This document shows positions 48,198 to 55,059 of a stretch of DNA of 64,000 nt, piece by piece. Origin of the DNA: an uncultured Gemmatimonadales bacterium (GTDB lineage: Bacteria > Gemmatimonadota > Gemmatimonadetes > Gemmatimonadales > GWC2-71-9); assembly GCA_963830455.1 (NCBI GenBank), contig CAWHMT010000002.1, forward strand, positions 879,569 through 943,568, in the 5' to 3' direction. The notes beneath the pieces are model-generated. The model was not told where the DNA came from and did not search any database. It saw nothing but the letters and a program-made list of their open reading frames with translations. Each line of letters opens with the position of its first letter. Positions within the stretch are counted from its first letter, which is position 1. A program made the position numbers and the translations under genes.

Positions 48198-49652
48198 ATG
48201 ACGACTTCGCGGGAAACGCGCGCGCGAGCGGTGGTCGTGCTGATCGACGGCGCACGGGCGGATGTGCTCCGCCATCTGCTCGAGCGCGGCCTGTTGCCGA
48301 ACCTCGCGCGGTGGGTGGTCGAACCGGGCGGCCTGACGGTCGGCACGACGGTTTTCCCGTCAACCACGGGCGTCGCGTACATCCCGTTGCTCTTCGGCCG
48401 CTATCCCGGCAGCGTCAACATCCCCGGGATTCGCTGGCTTGATCGCGTCGAGGCCCGCGGGGGGGCGGGGTGGCGCGCCCAATGGCGTGCCGCGCGCAGC
48501 TACTGTGGCGTGCAGGGCGGCTGGCTCAACCGAGACATTGCCCCCGCGCCCTCGCTCTTTGACCTGGTGCCGGAAAGCATCGCCATCTGCACGCCGCTGA
48601 CCCGAGGGTTGCGCCTCAGGGCCAACCGGGTCAAGGGTCTACGGGTGGCCCTGGGATCGGCGGCCCACTATTTCGGGACCTATCCGGCGCTCGACCGGGC
48701 GGTGGCACGAGCCTGGGTCGCGGCGGCGGAGGAGGAATGGCGTTTCCTTTTTGTCGTATTTCCCGGTATTGACGGTATCGCACATCTTGAGGCGCCTACG
48801 CATCCGGCAGTGCTCGAGAGCTACCGCCTGGTGGATCGGGCTCTCGGGGCCTTCATGGGGCGGGTTCAGAGGCGGGGTGACGTGCCGGCCGTGTTCGTGG
48901 TCTCGGATCACGGGATGACGATCATGCGCGACCACAGCGATATCGCAGTCGGGTTGGAGCGGGCGGGAGTACCAACGCTGCGGCATCCTGTGCATGTTTG
49001 GCGACGGCACGCCCGGGTCGCGACGATGGTCTCAGGCAATGCCAGTGCGCAGCTGTATTTCGAGCCCCGGTCCGGCCGGGGCCGCCCGCTCACCGAATCC
49101 GAGATTCCGGCGGCGCTCGTCGAGCAACTGTTGGCGATGCCCGCGGTGCGGTTGGCGGCGTGCCGGTCCGACGATGGCGGAGTCATCGTGCGAACCAGAG
49201 AGGCCCGGGCGCGTGTCGTGGACGAGGCGGGATTCGTTCGTTACACGCCAGACGATGGAGATCCGCTCGGCCTGGGCGGGTGTGTGGAACTCGACGATCG
49301 TGATATGTTGACCCGTAGCCGGGAGACCGATTTGCCTGACGCTCCACGCCAATTGCTACAGCTCTTTCAGTCGGCGCGGGCCGGCGATCTCGTCCTCGCG
49401 GCGGCGCCCGGCGCCGATTTCCGCGGCCCCTGGGAGATTCCGGAGCATCGCTCCGGCCACGGCAGTCTCATTGCGGAGCACATGGAAGTGCCCATTGCCG
49501 CCAACGTGGCTCTTCCCGACACGCCGATACGTACAGTAGATCTGATGCCGACAGTATTGGAACGCCTCGGCGTCGCCATTCCATCAGGCGTCGCTTTCGA
49601 TGGGGTTCCGTTTTCTAAACTCGTTGCAACAACTGAACCGCTGATTCGTTGA
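48198..49652 (+). CDS. Alkaline phosphatase superfamily nucleotide pyrophosphatase/phosphodiesterase (no signal peptide seen)
   Basis: 'VLIDGAR', 'TVFPSTT', 'DGIAH', 'VSDHG', 'SGHGS', 'RTVDLMPT'. Confidence 0.85.
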   Translation: MTTSRETRARAVVVLIDGARADVLRHLLERGLLPNLARWVVEPGGLTVGTTVFPSTTGVAYIPLLFGRYPGSVNIPGIRWLDRVEARGGAGWRAQWRAARSYCGVQGGWLNRDIAPAPSLFDLVPESIAICTPLTRGLRLRANRVKGLRVALGSAAHYFGTYPALDRAVARAWVAAAEEEWRFLFVVFPGIDGIAHLEAPTHPAVLESYRLVDRALGAFMGRVQRRGDVPAVFVVSDHGMTIMRDHSDIAVGLERAGVPTLRHPVHVWRRHARVATMVSGNASAQLYFEPRSGRGRPLTESEIPAALVEQLLAMPAVRLAACRSDDGGVIVRTREARARVVDEAGFVRYTPDDGDPLGLGGCVELDDRDMLTRSRETDLPDAPRQLLQLFQSARAGDLVLAAAPGADFRGPWEIPEHRSGHGSLIAEHMEVPIAANVALPDTPIRTVDLMPTVLERLGVAIPSGVAFDGVPFSKLVATTEPLIR

Positions 49653-49663
49653 GGGGACATTCG

Positions 49664-50734
49664 ATGCCTCCAAGTTGGCTCGTAGTCTTGGCCGCACTCC
49701 GCCTGGCCGTTGCCGGCTACGCGAGTGCTGTACCCGTAGACCGGCCGCCCGCGACTCACGACCTGGACTGGGATAGTTTGGCGCGGACGACGATTACCCC
49801 CGGCGCGAAGCGGGGTGAGCTGATCATGGAGTTGCCGGCTGTGGATCTCCCGGCCGGCGGTATGGTGAGGCAACCGGCCTCTGTAGCGGAATTCCCCTTG
49901 AATGGATCGATCTACGCGGTGCGGGCCGAGATCGTCGACGAGGCCGGCCGGCAGCTTCCGGTCGAATTGCTGCATCACATGAACGTGATGGATCCGAACG
50001 AGCGCGAGTTGTTCCTGCCGATTGCCCGTCGGATCCTCGCATCGGGAGGGGAAACGGGCGAAATCCGGATGCCGTGGCTCTTCGTGGGATCGCCGTTCCG
50101 GGCGGGGGAACACGTCCTCGCGTACGCGATGGTCCACAATCCAACGCCCGTGGGATATCAGGGCGTGCGGGTCCGGCTGGTGCTGAGCTATGTGCCCACG
50201 GGCCGGCCCTGGCCCTTCCTTTCCGTTGTGCCGTGGCAGCTCGACGTCGCTTTCCCGGTTGGTGACAAGTCATTCGACCTTCCCCCCGGGACCAGCGAGC
50301 GCTCCTATGAAGGAAGCCCGGCGGTTGCCGGCAAGCTCCTGGTGATCGGCGCGCACATGCACGCCTATGGGCGTACGATCGAGCTGTGGGATGCGACGAC
50401 CAACAAGTTGCTCTGGCATGGAGAACCCGAGCCGGCACCGGCGGGCGAACCGAGTCCAGTACCGATGGGCAAGTTCTATGGGCTCACCAGAATCGGCCTG
50501 CGGCTCACGCCGGAGCACCGGTATCGCGTGCGCGTGGTCTACGACAATCCGACCGGTACCACGATCCCCGACGGCGGAATGGGCGTTGTGGGTGGGTTGT
50601 TCATTCCGGATCGGGATGCGGCATGGCCACAGCCAAATACCGGCGAGGCGCTATATCAACAGGACCTGCAACACTTCATGGGCACGAGCCGGCCGGCCGG
50701 CGCGATGCCCCACCACTCACACGTCGGACACTAG
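49664..50734 (+). CDS. Secreted PHM/dopamine-beta-monooxygenase-like copper protein
   Basis: Signal peptide; HH, H, HxH, M in PHM order (LLHHM, MVHN, AHMHAYG, GGMG). Confidence 0.6.
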   Translation: MPPSWLVVLAALRLAVAGYASAVPVDRPPATHDLDWDSLARTTITPGAKRGELIMELPAVDLPAGGMVRQPASVAEFPLNGSIYAVRAEIVDEAGRQLPVELLHHMNVMDPNERELFLPIARRILASGGETGEIRMPWLFVGSPFRAGEHVLAYAMVHNPTPVGYQGVRVRLVLSYVPTGRPWPFLSVVPWQLDVAFPVGDKSFDLPPGTSERSYEGSPAVAGKLLVIGAHMHAYGRTIELWDATTNKLLWHGEPEPAPAGEPSPVPMGKFYGLTRIGLRLTPEHRYRVRVVYDNPTGTTIPDGGMGVVGGLFIPDRDAAWPQPNTGEALYQQDLQHFMGTSRPAGAMPHHSHVGH

Positions 50735-51613
50735 ACGCTGGGCGACGGGCTGTGGCGCCGTCGCCTCGGCGGTCTGCATGATGCCGAGCATCAACCCGGC
50801 CAGCATCAATCCCGCCAACGCGTCGACGGCGTAGTGGAACTGCCCGTACACCACCGCCAGAATCAGTCCGGTCGTGAAGGGTAACAGCACGAGTCCCACC
50901 GCGCGCCAATAGCGCAGTGCCATCCCGGTTGCCACGACGGATGCCGCCACGTGCGACGACGGGAAGGCGGCGCCCCACGAATCGCCGCGATCGAGCAGCC
51001 AGGCGGCGAATCGTGCCGGCCCCACGTTCGTAGCGACGTTGTGCGCGCCATCGAAGGCGTAGCGCGGTCCCGCCACCGGGAAGAACAAGAAGACGATGTA
51101 GCAGAGATAGAACGTGGCCATCACGGCGAAGATCGTGTGGCGCGAGGCGTCGCGGCGTCCCGCGATCCACAACGCAAACGGGGACGCGAACAGAATGGGA
51201 TAGTACGCGAGATAGCAGGCGTGCAGCACCCACGACGTCAGCATGTCGGGAGATTCCCGGATCCAGCGATAGGAGATCTGGGAACCGAACACCCACGTTT
51301 CGAGGCGCTGGATCTGCAAGTCGTTCTGAAAGCCCGCACTCAGCGTGAGCACGCCGATCTCGCCGTACAGCGCCGGCAGCAGCAGCATCGGATACCAGTC
51401 GGCGATAAAGCGGCCGAATCGGCCGGCGGTGCGGGCGCTCGGCGCGAGCGCGGCGAGCGTGAGGATCAGCGCGTGCGCCGTGAGCAGCCACGGCCACCCC
51501 GGGACCCCTTCGCCACGAAAAGCAACGAGGACCGCGCCGGTGGCAATCGTGATGTACGCCGCCGTCGCGATATCGACCGCGACGTATCCACGCCACAGCG
51601 GCTTTAGAGCCAT
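50717..51613 (-). CDS. PAP2-superfamily membrane enzyme, AUR1/inositol-phosphorylceramide-synthase-like
   Basis: 'DWYP', 'YLAYY', 'FPVAGPRY', 'AAFPSSHVA', 'VYGQFHYAVD', multiple TM helices. Confidence 0.8.
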   Translation of the reverse strand: MALKPLWRGYVAVDIATAAYITIATGAVLVAFRGEGVPGWPWLLTAHALILTLAALAPSARTAGRFGRFIADWYPMLLLPALYGEIGVLTLSAGFQNDLQIQRLETWVFGSQISYRWIRESPDMLTSWVLHACYLAYYPILFASPFALWIAGRRDASRHTIFAVMATFYLCYIVFLFFPVAGPRYAFDGAHNVATNVGPARFAAWLLDRGDSWGAAFPSSHVAASVVATGMALRYWRAVGLVLLPFTTGLILAVVYGQFHYAVDALAGLMLAGLMLGIMQTAEATAPQPVAQRLVSDV

Positions 51614-52575
51614 CCCACCTCCCGATACCAATTCGCAGCGCGACGGAGCCCGGTTTCGAGATCGATTTCCGCGCGCCAGCCGGTGTCTCGGGTTAGGGCA
51701 TCACCCCGACACGTCCACGCCGGCGCCAGGTACTCATTGCCCTTGTCGACCGACAGTACGGTGGCTCGCCCCGCAATATGTGCAATGGTGTCGGTTGCCC
51801 AAAGCAGTCCCCGCGCCACGAGAGGCGGCATGCCGATTATCCGCGGGCGCTTCCCGACCGCTCGCCCGACCTCCATCGCGAGCCCCCGGCTCGTCGTGGT
51901 GGTCGGGTGGGTGGCGAAATACACATGACCGGCCGCTGCCGGGGCGGTTGCTGCCGCGACGATCGCTTCCGCCAGGTCCTCGGCATGAATGACCGACAAT
52001 TCCTGTGATCCGTCACCGAATACGGGGAGAACTCCGCGCTTGGCCAGTTGAAAGATCTTGAGGGTGCCGCGGTCCCATTCGCCGTACACCAACGGAGGCC
52101 GGACGATCGTCCAGGGCAGGGGCATGGCCTGCACCAGCACCTCCCCCGCGAGCTTCGAGCGCCCGTAGTCCGTCACCGGAGCGGGCGGTCTCGTCTCATC
52201 GATGGGGTGGCCCGGTTGCGTTGGGCCGGCCACCGCGAGCGATGACACATAGAGGAGGCGACGCGCGCCGCCGTCCCGTGCTGCCTCGAGCACATTGGCC
52301 GTACCGTCGCGGTTCGTGGCCATGAACTCCGCCATGTCACGCGCGGCGATTTTGCCGGCGACGTGATACACCACGTCCATGCCGGCGCACCCTGCGCGGA
52401 GGACGGCCGCATCATCGAGGTCGCCCTTCAGCTGGCGAACGTCGTTACCCCAGCCCTGCATCTCCGCGAGGGCAGGGCTCCGCACCAGCGCGGTCACTGA
52501 GTCGCCGCGGGCCCGCAATGCCTTGACCAGGTGCGCGCCGAGGAAGCCGGTCGCGCCGGTCACAAAGACGTTCAC
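51604..52575 (-). CDS. NAD(P)-dependent extended SDR; candidate ceramide/3-oxo reductase (CerR-like)
   Basis: 'VTGATGFLG', 'YVSSLA', 'YGRSK', 'RPPLVYG'; functional call comes from operon context. Confidence 0.8.
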   Translation of the reverse strand: MNVFVTGATGFLGAHLVKALRARGDSVTALVRSPALAEMQGWGNDVRQLKGDLDDAAVLRAGCAGMDVVYHVAGKIAARDMAEFMATNRDGTANVLEAARDGGARRLLYVSSLAVAGPTQPGHPIDETRPPAPVTDYGRSKLAGEVLVQAMPLPWTIVRPPLVYGEWDRGTLKIFQLAKRGVLPVFGDGSQELSVIHAEDLAEAIVAAATAPAAAGHVYFATHPTTTTSRGLAMEVGRAVGKRPRIIGMPPLVARGLLWATDTIAHIAGRATVLSVDKGNEYLAPAWTCRGDALTRDTGWRAEIDLETGLRRAANWYREVGWL

Positions 52576-53684
52576 AGCGGCTTGTCGTAGATACGGAAGG
52601 TCTTGGTATGGCGGAAGCCGAGCGCGAGTGCCGCCTTGATTATCAATTCGTTGTCTTCGAGGAACCACCCCGCTTCGCCTCGCGGCATCCCGTGCTTCAC
52701 CGAGTTCTCCCACACGCGGTGATACAGGATCGCATCGATGCCGCGGCCCCGAAGATCCGGGATGACGCCCAGCAACAAGACGCGCGCGCGGTGAATCTTC
52801 CGCGCATGCCACAGCACCTTGAGAATGCCGGGAAACATCCGACCCGAGCGATTATGGAGCAGCGCGAGATTGAAATCCGGCAGGCCGACGGCGAAGCCCA
52901 CCACCGCGTCGCCCTGCTCCGCGAAGATCACGAGATCCGGTACGACGATCGGTTTGAGCTGCTTGGCGAGATGATCGATCTCGGCATCCGTCAACGGCAC
53001 GAATCCCCAATTCTTCTCCCACGCGCTGTTGTACAGCTTCTTGATCAGCTCGACCTCGTCCCCGAAGCGCTTCTTGTCTAGCGTGCGCAGTGTGATGCCG
53101 GAGCGCTTGAGGGCGCGCTCGCCCAGCCGGCGAAAGCGCTCGGGGGCCGACTCCGCACCGCCGCCATCGTACGCGAGCAGGTCCTTGGCCTTCGTGAAAC
53201 CGTAGCGCTCGTGCAGCGGCTGGTAGTAGGGAAAGTTGTACGGCATCATCAGCGACGGCGGCGTGCCGTCGTTGATAATCAGCAGCCCGCACTCGTCGTT
53301 TATCGAGGGGCTCATCGGCCCGCGCATCGTGTCGAACCCTTGCGCGCGCAGCCACGCTGCCGCGGTGTCGAACAACGCGTTGGCGACGGATTGATCGTCG
53401 ATCGACTCGAAGAAGCCGTAGAAACCGACGCGGTCCTGATACTCCTTGTTATGCAGGTCGTTCTTGATCGCCCCGATGCGACCGACCGTCCGACCGTCCG
53501 ACCGTCTGGCCGTCCAGTACTGCGCCTCGGCATGCTCGAAAAACGGATTCTTGCCGGGCGTCAGCAGCGTGCGCACGTCGCGGCGCAGCTGCGGCACCCA
53601 CAGCGGATCATTCCGGTAATGGTCGTAGGGAAAAGCGATGAAGCGATCGAGACCGCGCCCGTCGGAGACGGGCACGATCTCCAC
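52572..53684 (-). CDS. GNAT-fold protein, bacterial ceramide synthase (bCerS/YghO)-like
   Basis: 'FIAFPY..Y..DP.WVP.L', 'GFYGFFE', 'MRGP.SPSINDE.GLL', 'MPYN.PYY', 'AWEKNWGFVP', 'RGRGID'. Confidence 0.78.
   Translation of the reverse strand: MEIVPVSDGRGLDRFIAFPYDHYRNDPLWVPQLRRDVRTLLTPGKNPFFEHAEAQYWTARRSDGRTVGRIGAIKNDLHNKEYQDRVGFYGFFESIDDQSVANALFDTAAAWLRAQGFDTMRGPMSPSINDECGLLIINDGTPPSLMMPYNFPYYQPLHERYGFTKAKDLLAYDGGGAESAPERFRRLGERALKRSGITLRTLDKKRFGDEVELIKKLYNSAWEKNWGFVPLTDAEIDHLAKQLKPIVVPDLVIFAEQGDAVVGFAVGLPDFNLALLHNRSGRMFPGILKVLWHARKIHRARVLLLGVIPDLRGRGIDAILYHRVWENSVKHGMPRGEAGWFLEDNELIIKAALALGFRHTKTFRIYDKPL
53482..53516. repeat. Second CCGTCCGA octamer array inside CDS
   Basis: ccga-ccgtccga-ccgtccga-ccgtctgg-ccgtcca; encodes TARRSDGRTVGR on the minus strand. 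Confidence 0.85.
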
Positions 53685-53689
53685 TGCGG

Positions 53690-54895
53690 TCAGATGACCC
53701 CCAGCTCTTTCCCGAGGCGGCCGAAGACTTCGAGCGCGAGGTCGATCTGGTCGGCCGTATGGGTCGCCATCAGACTGGTGCGGAGGCGGCACTGGGACGG
53801 CGGCACCGCGGGCGGAACCACCGGATTGGTGAAGACGCCGGCGTCGAACAGCTGACGCCAGAAGAGGAACGTCTTCTCGAGCGGCCCGATCAACACCGGG
53901 ATGATCGGCGTCTCAGTCGGGCCGATGTCGAAGCCGAGGGACCGCATGCCCTCCTGCAGGCGCCGCGTGTTGCGCCACAGCTGCTCGCGCCGCTCCGGCT
54001 CGCGCTGCATGACGTGCAGCGCTGCGAGCACGCCGGCCGTGTTGGAGGGCGGCAACGCCGCGGTAAAGATCAAGGGGCGCGAGTGGTGGCGGAGGTAGTG
54101 AATCACGTTCTCCGTCCCCGCCGCGAATCCGCCAATCGACGCGAGCGACTTCGAGAACGTGCCGACGATCAGATCGACTTCGTCGATGAGATCGTAGTGG
54201 GCCGCCGTGCCGTCGCCGTTGGGGCCGAGCACGCCGATCGAATGGGCGTCGTCGAGAGCCAGGGCGGCGCCGTACTTCTGCGCGACCTTGAGCAGCCCGG
54301 GCACATCGGCGATGTCGCCTTCCATCGAATAGACACCATCGACGATGATCATCGTGCCCGTGCTCTCGGGCACCTTCTGGAGCTTGCGCTCGAGTCCCGC
54401 CAGGTCGCCGTGATTGAAGCGCTGCGTCTCGCCGTGCGACATCTTGGCGCCGTCGACGATCGAGGCGTGGTCCAGCTTGTCGAGGAACACGACGTCCGAG
54501 CGCCCGACCAGCCCGGAAATAAGGCCGAGATTCGCCTGATAGCCGGTCGAGAAGACGAGGCAGGATTCCTTGCCCAGGAACTCGGCGAGCTCGGTTTCGA
54601 GCTGCTCGTGGAGGTCGAGGGTGCCGTTGAGGAAGCGGCTGCCGGTGCAGCCGGAACCGTAGCGCTCCAGCGCCCCGCGGGCCGCCGCCAGGACTTCGGG
54701 ATGATGTGTGAGGCCGAGGTAGTTGTTCGACCCCATCATGATCCGCTCTTGGCCTTCGATGACCACGACCGTGTCTTCGGAGCGGGAGATCGGTTTGAAA
54801 TACGGATACAGCCCCGCAGCCTGGACCTCGCGCGCCCGGGTGAAGTTCTTACACTTATCGAACAGCGCGATGTGCTGCAGGGTCTCTGTGCGCAA
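53690..54895 (-). CDS. spt: Serine palmitoyltransferase-like alpha-oxoamine synthase
   Basis: 'GLYPYF', 'GSNNYLGL', 'GSRFLNGT', 'DHASI', 'DDAH', PLP Lys 'GTFSKSLAS'; probable TTG start with GAGG RBS. Confidence 0.8.
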   Translation of the reverse strand: MRTETLQHIALFDKCKNFTRAREVQAAGLYPYFKPISRSEDTVVVIEGQERIMMGSNNYLGLTHHPEVLAAARGALERYGSGCTGSRFLNGTLDLHEQLETELAEFLGKESCLVFSTGYQANLGLISGLVGRSDVVFLDKLDHASIVDGAKMSHGETQRFNHGDLAGLERKLQKVPESTGTMIIVDGVYSMEGDIADVPGLLKVAQKYGAALALDDAHSIGVLGPNGDGTAAHYDLIDEVDLIVGTFSKSLASIGGFAAGTENVIHYLRHHSRPLIFTAALPPSNTAGVLAALHVMQREPERREQLWRNTRRLQEGMRSLGFDIGPTETPIIPVLIGPLEKTFLFWRQLFDAGVFTNPVVPPAVPPSQCRLRTSLMATHTADQIDLALEVFGRLGKELGVI

Positions 54896-55059
54896 CGAAG
54901 CCTCGTGTTTTTGCAGGGGTAAGCGACGGTACAGCTTACCCTTGCTATCTCGAAATGGCAAGGCTCTTTGTGAGACTCGCCACAGCCTTTCGGGCCGGCT
55001 TCCTCGTAGCCTAGATTGCAACATTCGCCGCGGCTTGGCCGTTTTCCCGGAGGTTCATA

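Follow-up and report, generated by a model that had tools for sequence, protein, structure and literature searches.

Gene organization at the locus

The window, a stretch of 64,000 nucleotides, belongs to a soil-type bacterium of the Gemmatimonadales lineage, in agreement with the sequence-only reading, which had called the organism Gemmatimonadota-like. From the minus-strand reading and the list of open reading frames, four co-directional genes on the minus strand span exactly positions 50717 to 54895. The first, spt (53690..54895), encodes a serine palmitoyltransferase (SPT)-type alpha-oxoamine synthase of 401 aa and starts with TTG at 54895, with GAGG 5 nt upstream (54901-54904). The second encodes a GNAT N-acyltransferase of the bCerS family (YghO/CC_1154-like; 52572..53684, 370 aa), whose GTG start at 53684 lies 5 nt past the spt stop. 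The third encodes a CerR-like extended SDR reductase (51604..52575, 323 aa), which overlaps the GNAT gene by 4 nt, its GTG start codon sitting within the GTGA shared with the GNAT stop. The fourth encodes an Aur1/IPC-synthase-like PAP2_3 membrane protein (50717..51613, 298 aa), which overlaps the SDR gene by 10 nt and starts with ATG at 51613, preceded by GGGAGG. The tight or overlapping arrangement claimed earlier was therefore seen at all three junctions, and the quoted motifs were found in the translations (GSRFLNGT and GTFSKS in gene 1, FPSSH and HYAVD in gene 4). Contigs from RNA-labelled libraries contain parts of all four genes and span the spt/GNAT junction in three runs and the SDR/PAP2 junction in one run; as candidate transcripts rather than proof of transcription, they are a weak indication of operon expression.

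Family placement of the predicted ceramide genes

Gene 1 matched Aminotran_1_2 in Pfam (PF00155, 183.8 bits), and SPT models and structures outscored those of BioF, Kbl and ALAS. The best NCBIfam model was NF047600 (SPT-CFB, 534.5 bits), against 395.5 bits for bioF and 386.4 for Kbl, and the best PDB match was Sphingobacterium SPT (435 bits; E. coli KBL reached 288). The scores on all three NCBIfam SPT models were below the curated cut-offs (534.5 for 640, 425.2 for 500 and 356.7 for 670). Between the Sphingobacterium (CFB) and alphaproteobacterial types, the protein is nearer to the former, in NCBIfam (534.5 versus 356.7 bits) as in the PDB (435 versus 313). The PLP lysine within GTFSKS and one histidine align with Sphingomonas SPT. 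A 40-row tree placed gene 1 in an Spt clade (support 100/99) and outside the Kbl and BioF groups; this clade comprised the window protein, 29 oxoamine synthases adjoining GNAT genes, and the Spt proteins of Sphingomonas, E. coli and Roseomonas. Besides gene 1, a single further oxoamine synthase was found in the genome; it groups with Kbl (98/82), adjoins tdh and scores 513.6 bits on its own model, over the cut-off of 460. Model scores, PDB matches and tree placement agree with the earlier assignment of gene 1 as Spt rather than BioF or Kbl.

Gene 2 gave a weak match to Acetyltransf_1 in Pfam (24.9 bits) and matched no NCBIfam family. Over its full length it shares 34% identity both with E. coli YghO (E 2e-68) and with an N-acetyltransferase of Sphingomonas parapaucimobilis (E 4e-65), and the genes of both lie in sphingolipid loci with spt, acp, SDR and lptF/G paralogues. 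In PMC9386255, the legend to Figure 9 names both yghO/ECD_02850 and one Sphingomonas gene as CC_1154 homologues, CC_1154 being the Caulobacter bCerS. The bCerS-like GNAT of the sequence-only reading is thus a member of the YghO/CC_1154 family, a family name that comes from this legend, and the bCerS and CerR links to Caulobacter and B. fragilis pass via the E. coli and Sphingomonas homologues. A natural Spt-GNAT fusion (protein P0271) was found, as was a fusion of GNAT with an acyl-AMP ligase.

Gene 3 matched Epimerase in Pfam (PF01370, 135.6 bits), carries the motifs GATGFLG and YGRSK, and shares 29% identity with the epimerase/dehydratase of the E. coli sphingolipid locus (E 2e-32). It is the genome's top match to that reductase, narrowly ahead of a second SDR (3.5e-25 versus 4.4e-22), and its best NCBIfam match, HpnA (129.7 bits), is far below the cut-off of 367.65. 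In many phyla an SDR gene is linked with the spt and GNAT genes. Identity to the CerR-type protein and linkage together support the claimed assignment of gene 3 as a linked CerR-type reductase, for which sequence alone is not decisive.

Conservation of the gene cluster

Of 30 Gemmatimonadota-labelled loci, 23 have the complete quartet in one place; of the 17 with at least 3 kb on either side of the GNAT gene, 14 do. The spt gene adjoins the GNAT gene in 26/30 and 32/50 loci, and an SDR is linked to it in 27/30 and 26/50. Among the 33 non-Gemmatimonadota GNAT loci with enough flank, spt was not adjacent in ten; these include Cloacimonadota- and Chlorobi-labelled ones. A phylum sample of 151 Gemmatimonadota genomes held 96 GNAT-positive and 81 PAP2-positive members. 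All 81 PAP2-positive genomes were also GNAT-positive, and no PAP2 gene was found in those of the sample without a GNAT match, while 15 of the 96 GNAT-positive genomes gave no PAP2 match. The two genes lie within 3.5 kb of each other in 73 of these 96. Clusters of these four families also occur in Nonomuraea and at Eisenbacteria loci, and both Bacteroides finegoldii and Prevotella have an SDR-PAP2 pair that overlaps. Because the arrangement recurs in other genomes, the quartet is no chance feature of a GC-rich window. The four genes are confirmed as a real operon, a member of an already known pathway.

The PAP2 protein resembles IPC synthases

Gene 4 matched PAP2_3 in Pfam (PF14378, 65.6 bits) and no NCBIfam family, and a sequence-profile search of the PDB found no relative. 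PF14378 was found in 11 of 14 control genomes; therefore, the Pfam family itself is non-specific. The AlphaFold model of the protein is confident (pLDDT 91.7). Its top two Foldseek matches, the only ones at E <= 0.001, were IPC synthases (E 9.3e-5 and 5.6e-4). In VIA-align both gave Z 17.3, and the next fold was LpxE (14.3), followed by B. subtilis PgpB (13.3), G6PC1 (13.1) and E. coli PgpB (12.8). The IPC synthases align over the whole protein including two N-terminal helices (267 and 251 residues), whereas the phosphatases align to residues ~95-290 only (162-169 residues) and leave these helices uncovered. Identity to the IPC synthase structures is only 15-19%. Across 41 sequences H221, H260 and D264 are invariant, and at no position is Lys or Arg invariant or almost so. 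The triad spacing (39/4) equals that of Aur1 His255/His294/Asp298, positions taken from PMC12122681. The fold match of the model and the triad are in line with the AUR1-like protein named earlier and support gene 4 as a candidate ceramide phospho-head-group transferase.

Alternative explanations

It is scarcely conceivable that the oxoamine synthase is BioF or Kbl and its neighbours unrelated. Gene 1 does reach 395.5 and 386.4 bits on the bioF and Kbl models, and with only two oxoamine synthases found in the genome no separate BioF is evident; however, the true Kbl lies elsewhere, beside tdh, the tree parts gene 1 from both families, and overlapping frames, cross-phylum synteny and the Spt-GNAT fusion bind gene 1 to its neighbours. 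A non-sphingolipid or atypical lipid as the product is also quite improbable. Here cysteate would lead to a sulfonolipid or capnine, alanine or glycine to 1-deoxy bases, or the GNAT to an N-acyl amine lipid. Gene 1 does match a cysteate-C-fatty acyltransferase structure (245.8 bits) and falls under the NCBIfam SPT cut-offs, GNAT homologues occur without adjacent spt, and Black Sea bacteria produce 1-deoxy and sulfono-ceramides, as stated in PMC11334938. Yet both SPT structures outscore the cysteate enzyme, gene 1 shares the Spt clade with three named proteins from sphingolipid loci, and an Aur1-type partner would need a C1 hydroxyl, which only a serine-derived base would provide.

The alternative with the most weight, though still unlikely, is that genes 1-3 make ceramide and that gene 4 encodes a lipid phosphate phosphatase instead of transferring a head group. 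Its possible substrates would then be ceramide-1-phosphate, a phosphorylated sphingoid base, phosphatidylglycerol phosphate or, as for LpxE, lipid A. The PAP2 fold and its His/His/Asp core are common to phosphatases, most of the control genomes with PF14378 are not sphingolipid makers, and the source annotation of relatives reads 'phosphatase PAP2 family protein'. Motifs C1 and C3 of PAP2 phosphatases retain basic residues that Aur1/SMS-type transferases are not known to have. The lack of a conserved Lys or Arg thus argues against a phosphatase, as do the Aur1-like triad spacing, the Foldseek result and the whole-length alignment to IPC synthases, three Z units above the phosphatases.

Proposed pathway and head group

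From the structure of the genes, their families and synteny, the fold and the conserved residues we infer every catalytic step and the product: the four genes probably form one operon for a phosphosphingolipid, with ceramide built from serine and then given a phospho head group. Spt would join serine to an acyl thioester by condensation, forming 3-ketosphinganine. Since the four-gene unit has no gene for a dedicated ACP or an acyl-ACP synthetase, acyl-CoA is the probable thioester. The GNAT would attach the amide-linked acyl chain, and the SDR would then reduce the 3-keto group to give dihydroceramide, an order of acylation before reduction borrowed from work on Caulobacter and B. fragilis. 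Finally, the Aur1-like enzyme may use its His-His-Asp triad to move the head group of a glycerophospholipid to the C1 hydroxyl of ceramide, with release of diacylglycerol. The sequence-only reading had proposed serine to ceramide to phosphosphingolipid in one unit; all four family assignments held, and activity and product stay predicted. If this reading is true, the recently worked-out bacterial ceramide pathway extends to Gemmatimonadales. The lineage is less novel than had been implied, because PMC11334938 already reports sphingolipid genomic potential for about 40 phyla.

The genome encodes a PIP synthase-MIPS pair 35 kb from the operon and a Psd gene adjoining a CDP-alcohol transferase gene, so candidate donor lipids can be made. 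The earlier statement that the head group cannot be predicted was slightly too strong, since the PIP synthase-MIPS pair makes phosphoinositol feasible. MIPS occurs in 142 of the 151 phylum genomes, operon present or not, and therefore does not discriminate. As a rough estimate, phosphoinositol is a tentative first choice, phosphoethanolamine a close second, and phosphoglycerol or another group the least expected.

Comparison with known systems

The ceramide genes of Caulobacter crescentus are given as Spt CC_1162, bCerS CC_1154/CCNA_01212 and CerR CC_1164/CCNA_01222 in PMC11087976, PMC9386255 and bioRxiv 10.64898/2026.04.12.717747. Compared by family rather than by sequence, the Gemmatimonadales unit likewise has a genome-linked oxoamine synthase, ~370-aa GNAT and extended SDR, and the condense, acylate, reduce logic is likely shared. 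However, its genes are contiguous or overlapping, whereas those of Caulobacter are spread through a 15-gene locus; it is without a dedicated ACP, acyl-ACP synthetase or LptF/G paralogue; and a PAP2_3 gene takes the place of the kinase-based head-group route. Gene 2, gene 3 and the Spt clade tie the unit to the yghO locus of E. coli B/UTI89 type, and gene 2 and the clade to the Sphingomonas locus, but these loci have acp, a gene for a fatty acyl-AMP ligase and paralogues of lptF/G, and in the 17 kb examined they show no PAP2_3 gene.

In Bacteroides thetaiotaomicron, the AUR1 homologue BT_1522 is a PI-dihydroceramide synthase whose deletion abolishes PI-DHC (PMC9246714), in agreement with the earlier statement on Bacteroides. 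Gene 4 would resemble BT_1522, known here by description rather than sequence, as a predicted Aur1-like enzyme that places a phospho head group on dihydroceramide, and the genome's PIP synthase-MIPS pair parallels BT_1523/BT_1526. BT_1522 sits in an inositol-lipid cluster away from the ceramide genes, whereas in the Gemmatimonadales genome the PAP2 and reductase genes overlap and those for inositol lie apart. No PIPS or MIPS was found within 7 kb of the SDR-paired Bacteroidales relatives in B. finegoldii and Prevotella.

The two best structural matches are the yeast Aur1-Kei1 IPC synthase (PDB 9ivc) and an IPC synthase-ceramide complex (9vj4). The model suggests that gene 4 shares the core and N-terminal helices of yeast Aur1 over its whole length, although Aur1 is longer (401 aa). 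Human SMSr, a ceramide phosphoethanolamine synthase (PDB 8ijq), uses the triad chemistry predicted for gene 4 and moves a glycerophospholipid head group to ceramide (PMC12122681). It is a weaker structural match (Z 12.3, 196 residues aligned), with six helices and no counterpart of the N-terminal pair.

Organization of the operon

Four minus-strand genes, which the sequence-only reading had described as tightly spaced or overlapping between 50717 and 54895 of the window, were recovered with these ORF boundaries. Gene 1 (54895-53690, minus strand) encodes the Spt oxoamine synthase of 401 aa and has a TTG start with GAGG 5 nt upstream. It is followed on the same strand by gene 2 (53684-52572), which encodes a GNAT protein of 370 aa from a GTG start 5 nt past the spt stop, and by gene 3 (52575-51604), which encodes an SDR of 323 aa from a GTG start within a GTGA overlap. 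The last gene of the minus-strand unit, gene 4 (51613-50717), encodes a PAP2 protein of 298 aa, with an ATG start after GGGAGG and a 10-nt overlap with gene 3. The motifs GSRFLNGT, GTFSKS, FPSSH and HYAVD from the same reading were all found in the translations. Pfam matches were Aminotran_1_2 for gene 1 (183.8 bits), a weak Acetyltransf_1 for gene 2 (24.9 bits), Epimerase (PF01370) for gene 3 (135.6 bits) and PAP2_3 (PF14378) for gene 4 (65.6 bits), and no NCBIfam model matched the proteins of gene 2 or gene 4. The closest named relatives of genes 2 and 4 were from Gemmatimonadales MAGs, and the source genome itself (3.47 Mb in 8 contigs), in which the window spans C2:879569-943568, is rated 100% complete. 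The promoter scan returned no sigma-70-like site against 0.8 expected, and the terminator scan returned 5 terminator-like sites (2.9 expected), none of them downstream of gene 4 on the minus strand.

Assignment of gene 1 to Spt

The best NCBIfam model for gene 1 was NF047600 (SPT, CFB type) with 534.5 bits, compared with 395.5 bits for bioF and 386.4 bits for Kbl; the score is below the curated cut-off of 640 bits, which places the protein outside that lineage-specific equivalog. Among solved structures the highest scores were obtained with the SPT of Sphingobacterium (435 bits) and of Sphingomonas (313 bits), followed by Thermus BioF/KBL (298 bits), E. coli KBL (288 bits) and cysteate-C-fatty acyltransferase (246 bits). 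In the alignment with the 2jg2 chain (Sphingomonas SPT), K249, which lies in GTFSKS, H143 and R372 corresponded to K265, H159 and R390, respectively. We take K249 to be the PLP-binding lysine and H143 to be the active-site histidine.

A careful IQ-TREE analysis of 40 oxoamine synthases included 33 Spt-type rows (the window protein, 29 GNAT-adjacent oxoamine synthases from other phyla, and Spt from annotated sphingolipid loci of Sphingomonas, E. coli and Roseomonas). The remaining rows were one HemA, three BioF, two annotated Kbl and the Kbl of the source genome; the references were annotated plasmid-collection records and not biochemically characterised proteins themselves. All 33 Spt-type rows formed one clade with support of 100/99, and the Kbl rows, including the genome's own, were separate with support of 98/82. 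A grouping with BioF or Kbl had been set beforehand as the refuting result, and the tree placed gene 1 in the Spt clade instead. The identification of gene 1 as BioF or Kbl is very unlikely given the tree separation and the higher SPT scores, and the earlier view that its motifs match SPT better than BioF or KBL held. By sequence, gene 1 is assigned to Spt, and its product is predicted to condense serine.

The sole other oxoamine synthase in the genome scored as Kbl (513.6 bits, cut-off 460) and its gene overlaps tdh; neither of the two oxoamine synthases found was a separate BioF. The tdh-kbl pair is canonical (L003:332-2589, on contig C6 of the source genome), with a 4-nt overlap and both proteins above an NCBIfam cut-off.

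Genes 2 and 3 as bCerS-family and CerR-type candidates

Gene 2 matched E. coli YghO over its full length with 34% identity (E 2e-68) and a Sphingomonas parapaucimobilis N-acetyltransferase with 34% identity (E 4e-65) in pairwise BLASTP. Both matches came from a tblastn search of the plasmid collection, in which Roseomonas proteins showed 43-44% identity. Gene 2 belongs to a large family, with 7768 clusters at E <= 0.001, of which 1414 remain at E <= 1e-30, and an ESM Atlas search returned generic GNAT clusters only. The neighbours of E. coli yghO encode a fatty acyl-AMP ligase, an epimerase/dehydratase, an ACP, an oxoamine synthase and lptF/G paralogues, while those of the Sphingomonas GNAT gene encode lptF/G paralogues, an oxoamine synthase, an ACP and an NAD(P)H-binding protein; these genomic settings are sphingolipid loci. 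The legend of Figure 9 in PMC9386255 gives 'aca: CC_1154, yghO ECD_02850, Swit_3908...' and 'epi: CC_1164, ECD_02852...' as genes needed for dihydroceramide synthesis. The sphingolipid locus of Caulobacter is described as ccna_01212-01226, with LptG2 and LptF2 as 01213 and 01214, in a 2026 preprint (10.64898/2026.04.12.717747). In B. fragilis, according to a preprint, knocking out cerS leads to a build-up of 3-ketosphinganine, and knocking out cerR to a build-up of keto-dihydroceramide.

Natural fusions of an oxoamine synthase with a GNAT (P0271, 780 aa) and of a GNAT with an AMP-binding acyl-activating enzyme (P0376, 940 aa) support a bCerS role for the gene 2 family; a further protein, P0241, is a tandem double GNAT of 784 aa. 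We assign gene 2 to the bCerS (YghO/CC_1154) family, with N-acylation as its predicted activity; the membership is indirect, because the link runs via the E. coli and Sphingomonas homologues and not via the Caulobacter sequence itself.

On Roseomonas megaplasmids (L086, L100) the GNAT homologue, 43-44% identical to gene 2, is annotated as 'dATP pyrophosphohydrolase'. Genes for LptF/G-family permeases, a sterol desaturase family protein, a CDP-alcohol phosphatidyltransferase and an acylglycerol/diacylglycerol kinase family protein lie near it, and in the R. mucosa record an acp-spt pair is found about 10 kb away. This region looks like a plasmid-borne sphingolipid locus.

The gene 3 product is an extended SDR: GATGFLG, the glycine motif for NAD(P) binding, occupies residues 6-12, and the catalytic YxxxK is present as YGRSK. 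It shared 29% identity with the epimerase/dehydratase of the E. coli locus (E 2e-32). When the E. coli reductase was searched against the source genome, gene 3 was the best match at 3.5e-25, with a second SDR close behind at 4.4e-22. Since gene 3 leads only narrowly, its assignment as the probable CerR-type reductase of the operon is made mainly by linkage.

Aur1-like architecture of the gene 4 product

Across 41 aligned sequences that share 23-87% identity with the query, the residues D98, Y134, P179, G182, F217, P218, S219, H221, H260, Y261, D264 and G268 of gene 4 were invariant, and no lysine or arginine was invariant or nearly so. The catalytic triads of Aur1 (His255/His294/Asp298) and SMSr (His301/His344/Asp348) are given in PMC12122681. 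The spacing of H221, H260 and D264 in gene 4 (39 and 4 residues) is identical to that of the Aur1 triad.

An AlphaFold model built from the 41-sequence alignment reached a pLDDT of 91.7 and a pTM of 0.90; an earlier model, built from 23 closely related sequences, had a low pLDDT (63.4) and was discarded. Foldseek with the better model gave only two matches at E <= 0.001, the IPC synthase-ceramide complex 9vj4_A (9.3e-5) and Aur1 of the Aur1-Kei1 complex 9ivc_A (5.6e-4), and the third match had an E of 5.9e-2. VIA-align gave Z 17.3 for both structures, the alignments spanning model residues 1-294 with 251 aligned positions for 9vj4_A and 267 for 9ivc_A. LpxE came next, with Z 14.3, 162 residues aligned and only residues 95-282 covered, followed by B. 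subtilis PgpB (13.3) and SMSr (12.3). The IPC synthase structures share just 15-19% identity with the protein, and no PDB chain was found at E <= 0.1 with a profile built from 23 close relatives of gene 4 (best E 0.34). Because PF14378 also had matches in 11 of the 14 control genomes, the case for Aur1 is made by the fold and the triad and not by the Pfam name. The match to IPC synthases over the whole length means that the modelled protein shares the architecture of Aur1, down to its two N-terminal helices. The likeness of FPSSH and HYAVD to AUR1/IPC synthases, proposed from the motifs, was thereby strengthened by triad spacing and fold. On the model, gene 4 is Aur1-like and a candidate ceramide phosphotransferase.

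Conservation of the four genes across genomes

A scan of species-representative genomes found at least 596 GNAT relatives among at least 600 matched stretches, from which the best 80 loci were kept and their neighbours counted by local tblastn. Thirty of these best 80 loci (of at least 596) carried a Gemmatimonadota label; spt lay within 1.5 kb of the GNAT gene in 26, an SDR gene within 3 kb in 27 and a PAP2 gene within 3 kb in 25. All four genes were together in 23 of the 30, which bears out the synteny across Gemmatimonadota that the sequence-only reading had put forward for checking; when only the loci of this subset with at least 3 kb on both sides were considered, the figure was 14 of 17. 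The 50 loci with other labels, likewise from the best 80 of at least 596, included Ignavibacteria, Eisenbacteria, Cytophagia, Saprospiraceae, Planctomycetota, Zixibacteria, Acidobacteriota, Binatia and Elusimicrobia. Within the same distances they had spt in 32, an SDR gene in 26 and a PAP2 gene in 8, and all four genes in 4 (two Eisenbacteria and two unclassified).

No adjacent spt was present in 10 of the 33 other-label loci with enough flank (best 80 of at least 596), for example in those labelled Cloacimonadota and Chlorobi. Three loci labelled Latescibacterota or Cloacimonadota (L053, L054, L063) have a GNAT-PAP2 pair without spt; in L054 and L063 the flanks of the GNAT gene exceed 3 kb in both directions, and the contig of L053 begins 1.7 kb upstream. 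PMC11334938 remarks that Spt-like genes of Cloacimonadota have no bCerS or CerR within ten ORFs, and the three spt-less loci fit this remark.

Within the phylum, a GNAT match was found in 96 of 151 genomes sampled and a PAP2 match in 81 (94 and 80 of 149 without the two unpublished genomes G056 and G096). The PAP2 match lay within 3.5 kb of the GNAT match in 73 of the 96 GNAT-positive genomes (72 of 94 without the unpublished two), was present without adjacency in 8 of the 151 genomes, two of these at contig ends, and was absent from 15 of the 96; no sampled genome had PAP2 without GNAT. The window's own family, with the window genome excluded, was nearly uniform (GNAT in 70 of 71 genomes, PAP2 in 66 of 71), and the next family (f2) had GNAT in 5 of 31 and PAP2 in 3 of 31. 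These phylum counts are descriptive and not statistics, because related genomes are not independent.

In three genomes (G126:C1:3128415-3129117, G064:C121:45310-46116 and G062:C41:1556-2404) the PAP2 homologue appeared as two matches or with an in-frame stop (TGA/TAG), and these may be pseudogenes or assembly errors. At G027:C83:38305-40409, in a genome that belongs to a different family within the same class, the PAP2 match begins 200 nt past the GNAT match, leaving no space for an SDR gene between them.

Candidate head-group donors and relatives of gene 4

The source genome encodes a PIP synthase (NF045883, 163.8 bits, cut-off 170; the BT_1523-type model matched too), whose gene overlaps by 4 nt that for myo-inositol-1-phosphate synthase (MIPS; PF07994, 316 bits). 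Together with a membrane pyrophosphatase gene they occupy L093:6100-10629 (contig C2 of the source genome, 968099-972628), 35 kb from the operon. The PIP synthase-MIPS pair makes phosphatidylinositol a plausible donor for the predicted head-group transfer, and in B. thetaiotaomicron an AUR1 homologue makes PI-dihydroceramide (PMC9246714). Co-occurrence with MIPS was uninformative as a head-group test, as 142 of the 151 sampled phylum genomes were positive (141 of 149 without the unpublished G056 and G096), whether the operon was present or absent; such a distribution suggests inositol lipids or solutes as a trait of the whole phylum. A Psd gene adjoins a CDP-alcohol transferase gene in the source genome, indicating that the organism also makes PE.

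The nearest plasmid-collection relatives of gene 4 speak against a link to an inositol cluster. A PAP2 protein of Bacteroides finegoldii shared 28% identity with gene 4 (E 3e-17). It is encoded in overlap with an SDR that shows 26% identity to gene 3 (E 3e-36; pair at L101:5700-7663). Prevotella sp. oral taxon 299 has the same SDR-PAP2 pair with about 40 nt between the genes (L103:5654-7591), and neither PIPS nor MIPS was found within 7 kb of either pair. In the actinomycete Nonomuraea gerenzanensis (Actinomycetota; L102:8001-12363), homologues of PAP2, SDR, GNAT and spt occupy a stretch of about 4.5 kb. Its spt match is in two pieces (query residues 12-218 and 233-401), which may reflect a frameshift or a mere alignment gap.

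The PAP2_3 clade of gene 4 is coupled to a CerR-type reductase gene in Gemmatimonadota and Eisenbacteria, clustered with the other genes in Nonomuraea and present in an SDR-PAP2 pair in Bacteroides, where the genes overlap, and in Prevotella. It is possible, though somewhat doubtful, that this clade is an uncharacterised bacterial Aur1/SMS ceramide phosphotransferase branch distinct from BT_1522, the AUR1 homologue of the B. thetaiotaomicron inositol-lipid cluster, that its Bacteroidales members are candidate dihydroceramide phosphoethanolamine synthases, and that Gemmatimonadota would then be abundant soil producers of phosphosphingolipids. Gemmatimonadota are common in soils. The portions of the literature on the Bacteroidales lipids that we drew on do not name a dihydroceramide phosphoethanolamine synthase, and, if the operon has the proposed function, the coupled SDR-PAP2 pair would be a testable candidate for an unassigned head-group step in gut Bacteroidales.

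Relation to published work and implications

The Spt/bCerS/CerR trio, its frequent clustering and its genomic potential in about 40 phyla are already described in PMC11334938. The string 'Gemmatimonad' does not occur in the main text of that paper, and its Supplementary Data 2 may list the phylum. Among the hits listed by a full-text literature search of main texts, none was relevant to sphingolipids in Gemmatimonadota. A small literature sample contained no mention of bCerS together with PAP2, AUR1 or IPC synthase. New here are the lineage, the overlap of an Aur1-like gene with the reductase gene in a compact operon, and the recurrence of this coupling in several phyla.

Should the operon function as proposed, an entire lineage at family level would have a compact, portable four-gene route from serine to phosphosphingolipid that is convenient for heterologous expression. 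Such a route would help in assigning environmental sphingolipids to their producers and in testing which head groups bacterial Aur1-like enzymes use.

Metatranscriptome contigs and flanking genes

Contigs from four metatranscriptome-labelled runs of two studies matched parts of all four genes with 90-100% identity. The spt/GNAT junction is spanned by contigs of three runs (X8, X14 and X17), one of which (X17) also has contig sequence across the SDR/PAP2 junction. Large parts of the GNAT and SDR genes were left uncovered by contigs in the RNA-labelled runs, which is no sign of silence. These contigs give a weak hint of operon expression, since DNA may be present in libraries of this kind and a contig does not amount to a transcript.

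Convergent with the operon, at 48198-50734 on the plus strand of the window, lie a gene for a type I phosphodiesterase/nucleotide pyrophosphatase (PF01663, 484 aa) and, in 4-nt overlap with it, a gene for a 361-aa protein with a signal-peptide-like N-terminus and no Pfam match; the pair overlaps the 3' end of the PAP2 gene by 18 nt. A role of this pair in sphingolipid turnover is only a guess. Just beyond the PAP2 gene in some Gemmatimonadota loci, the phosphodiesterase was found in L004, L009 and L019, and the 361-aa protein in L004, L010, L019, L020 and L028.
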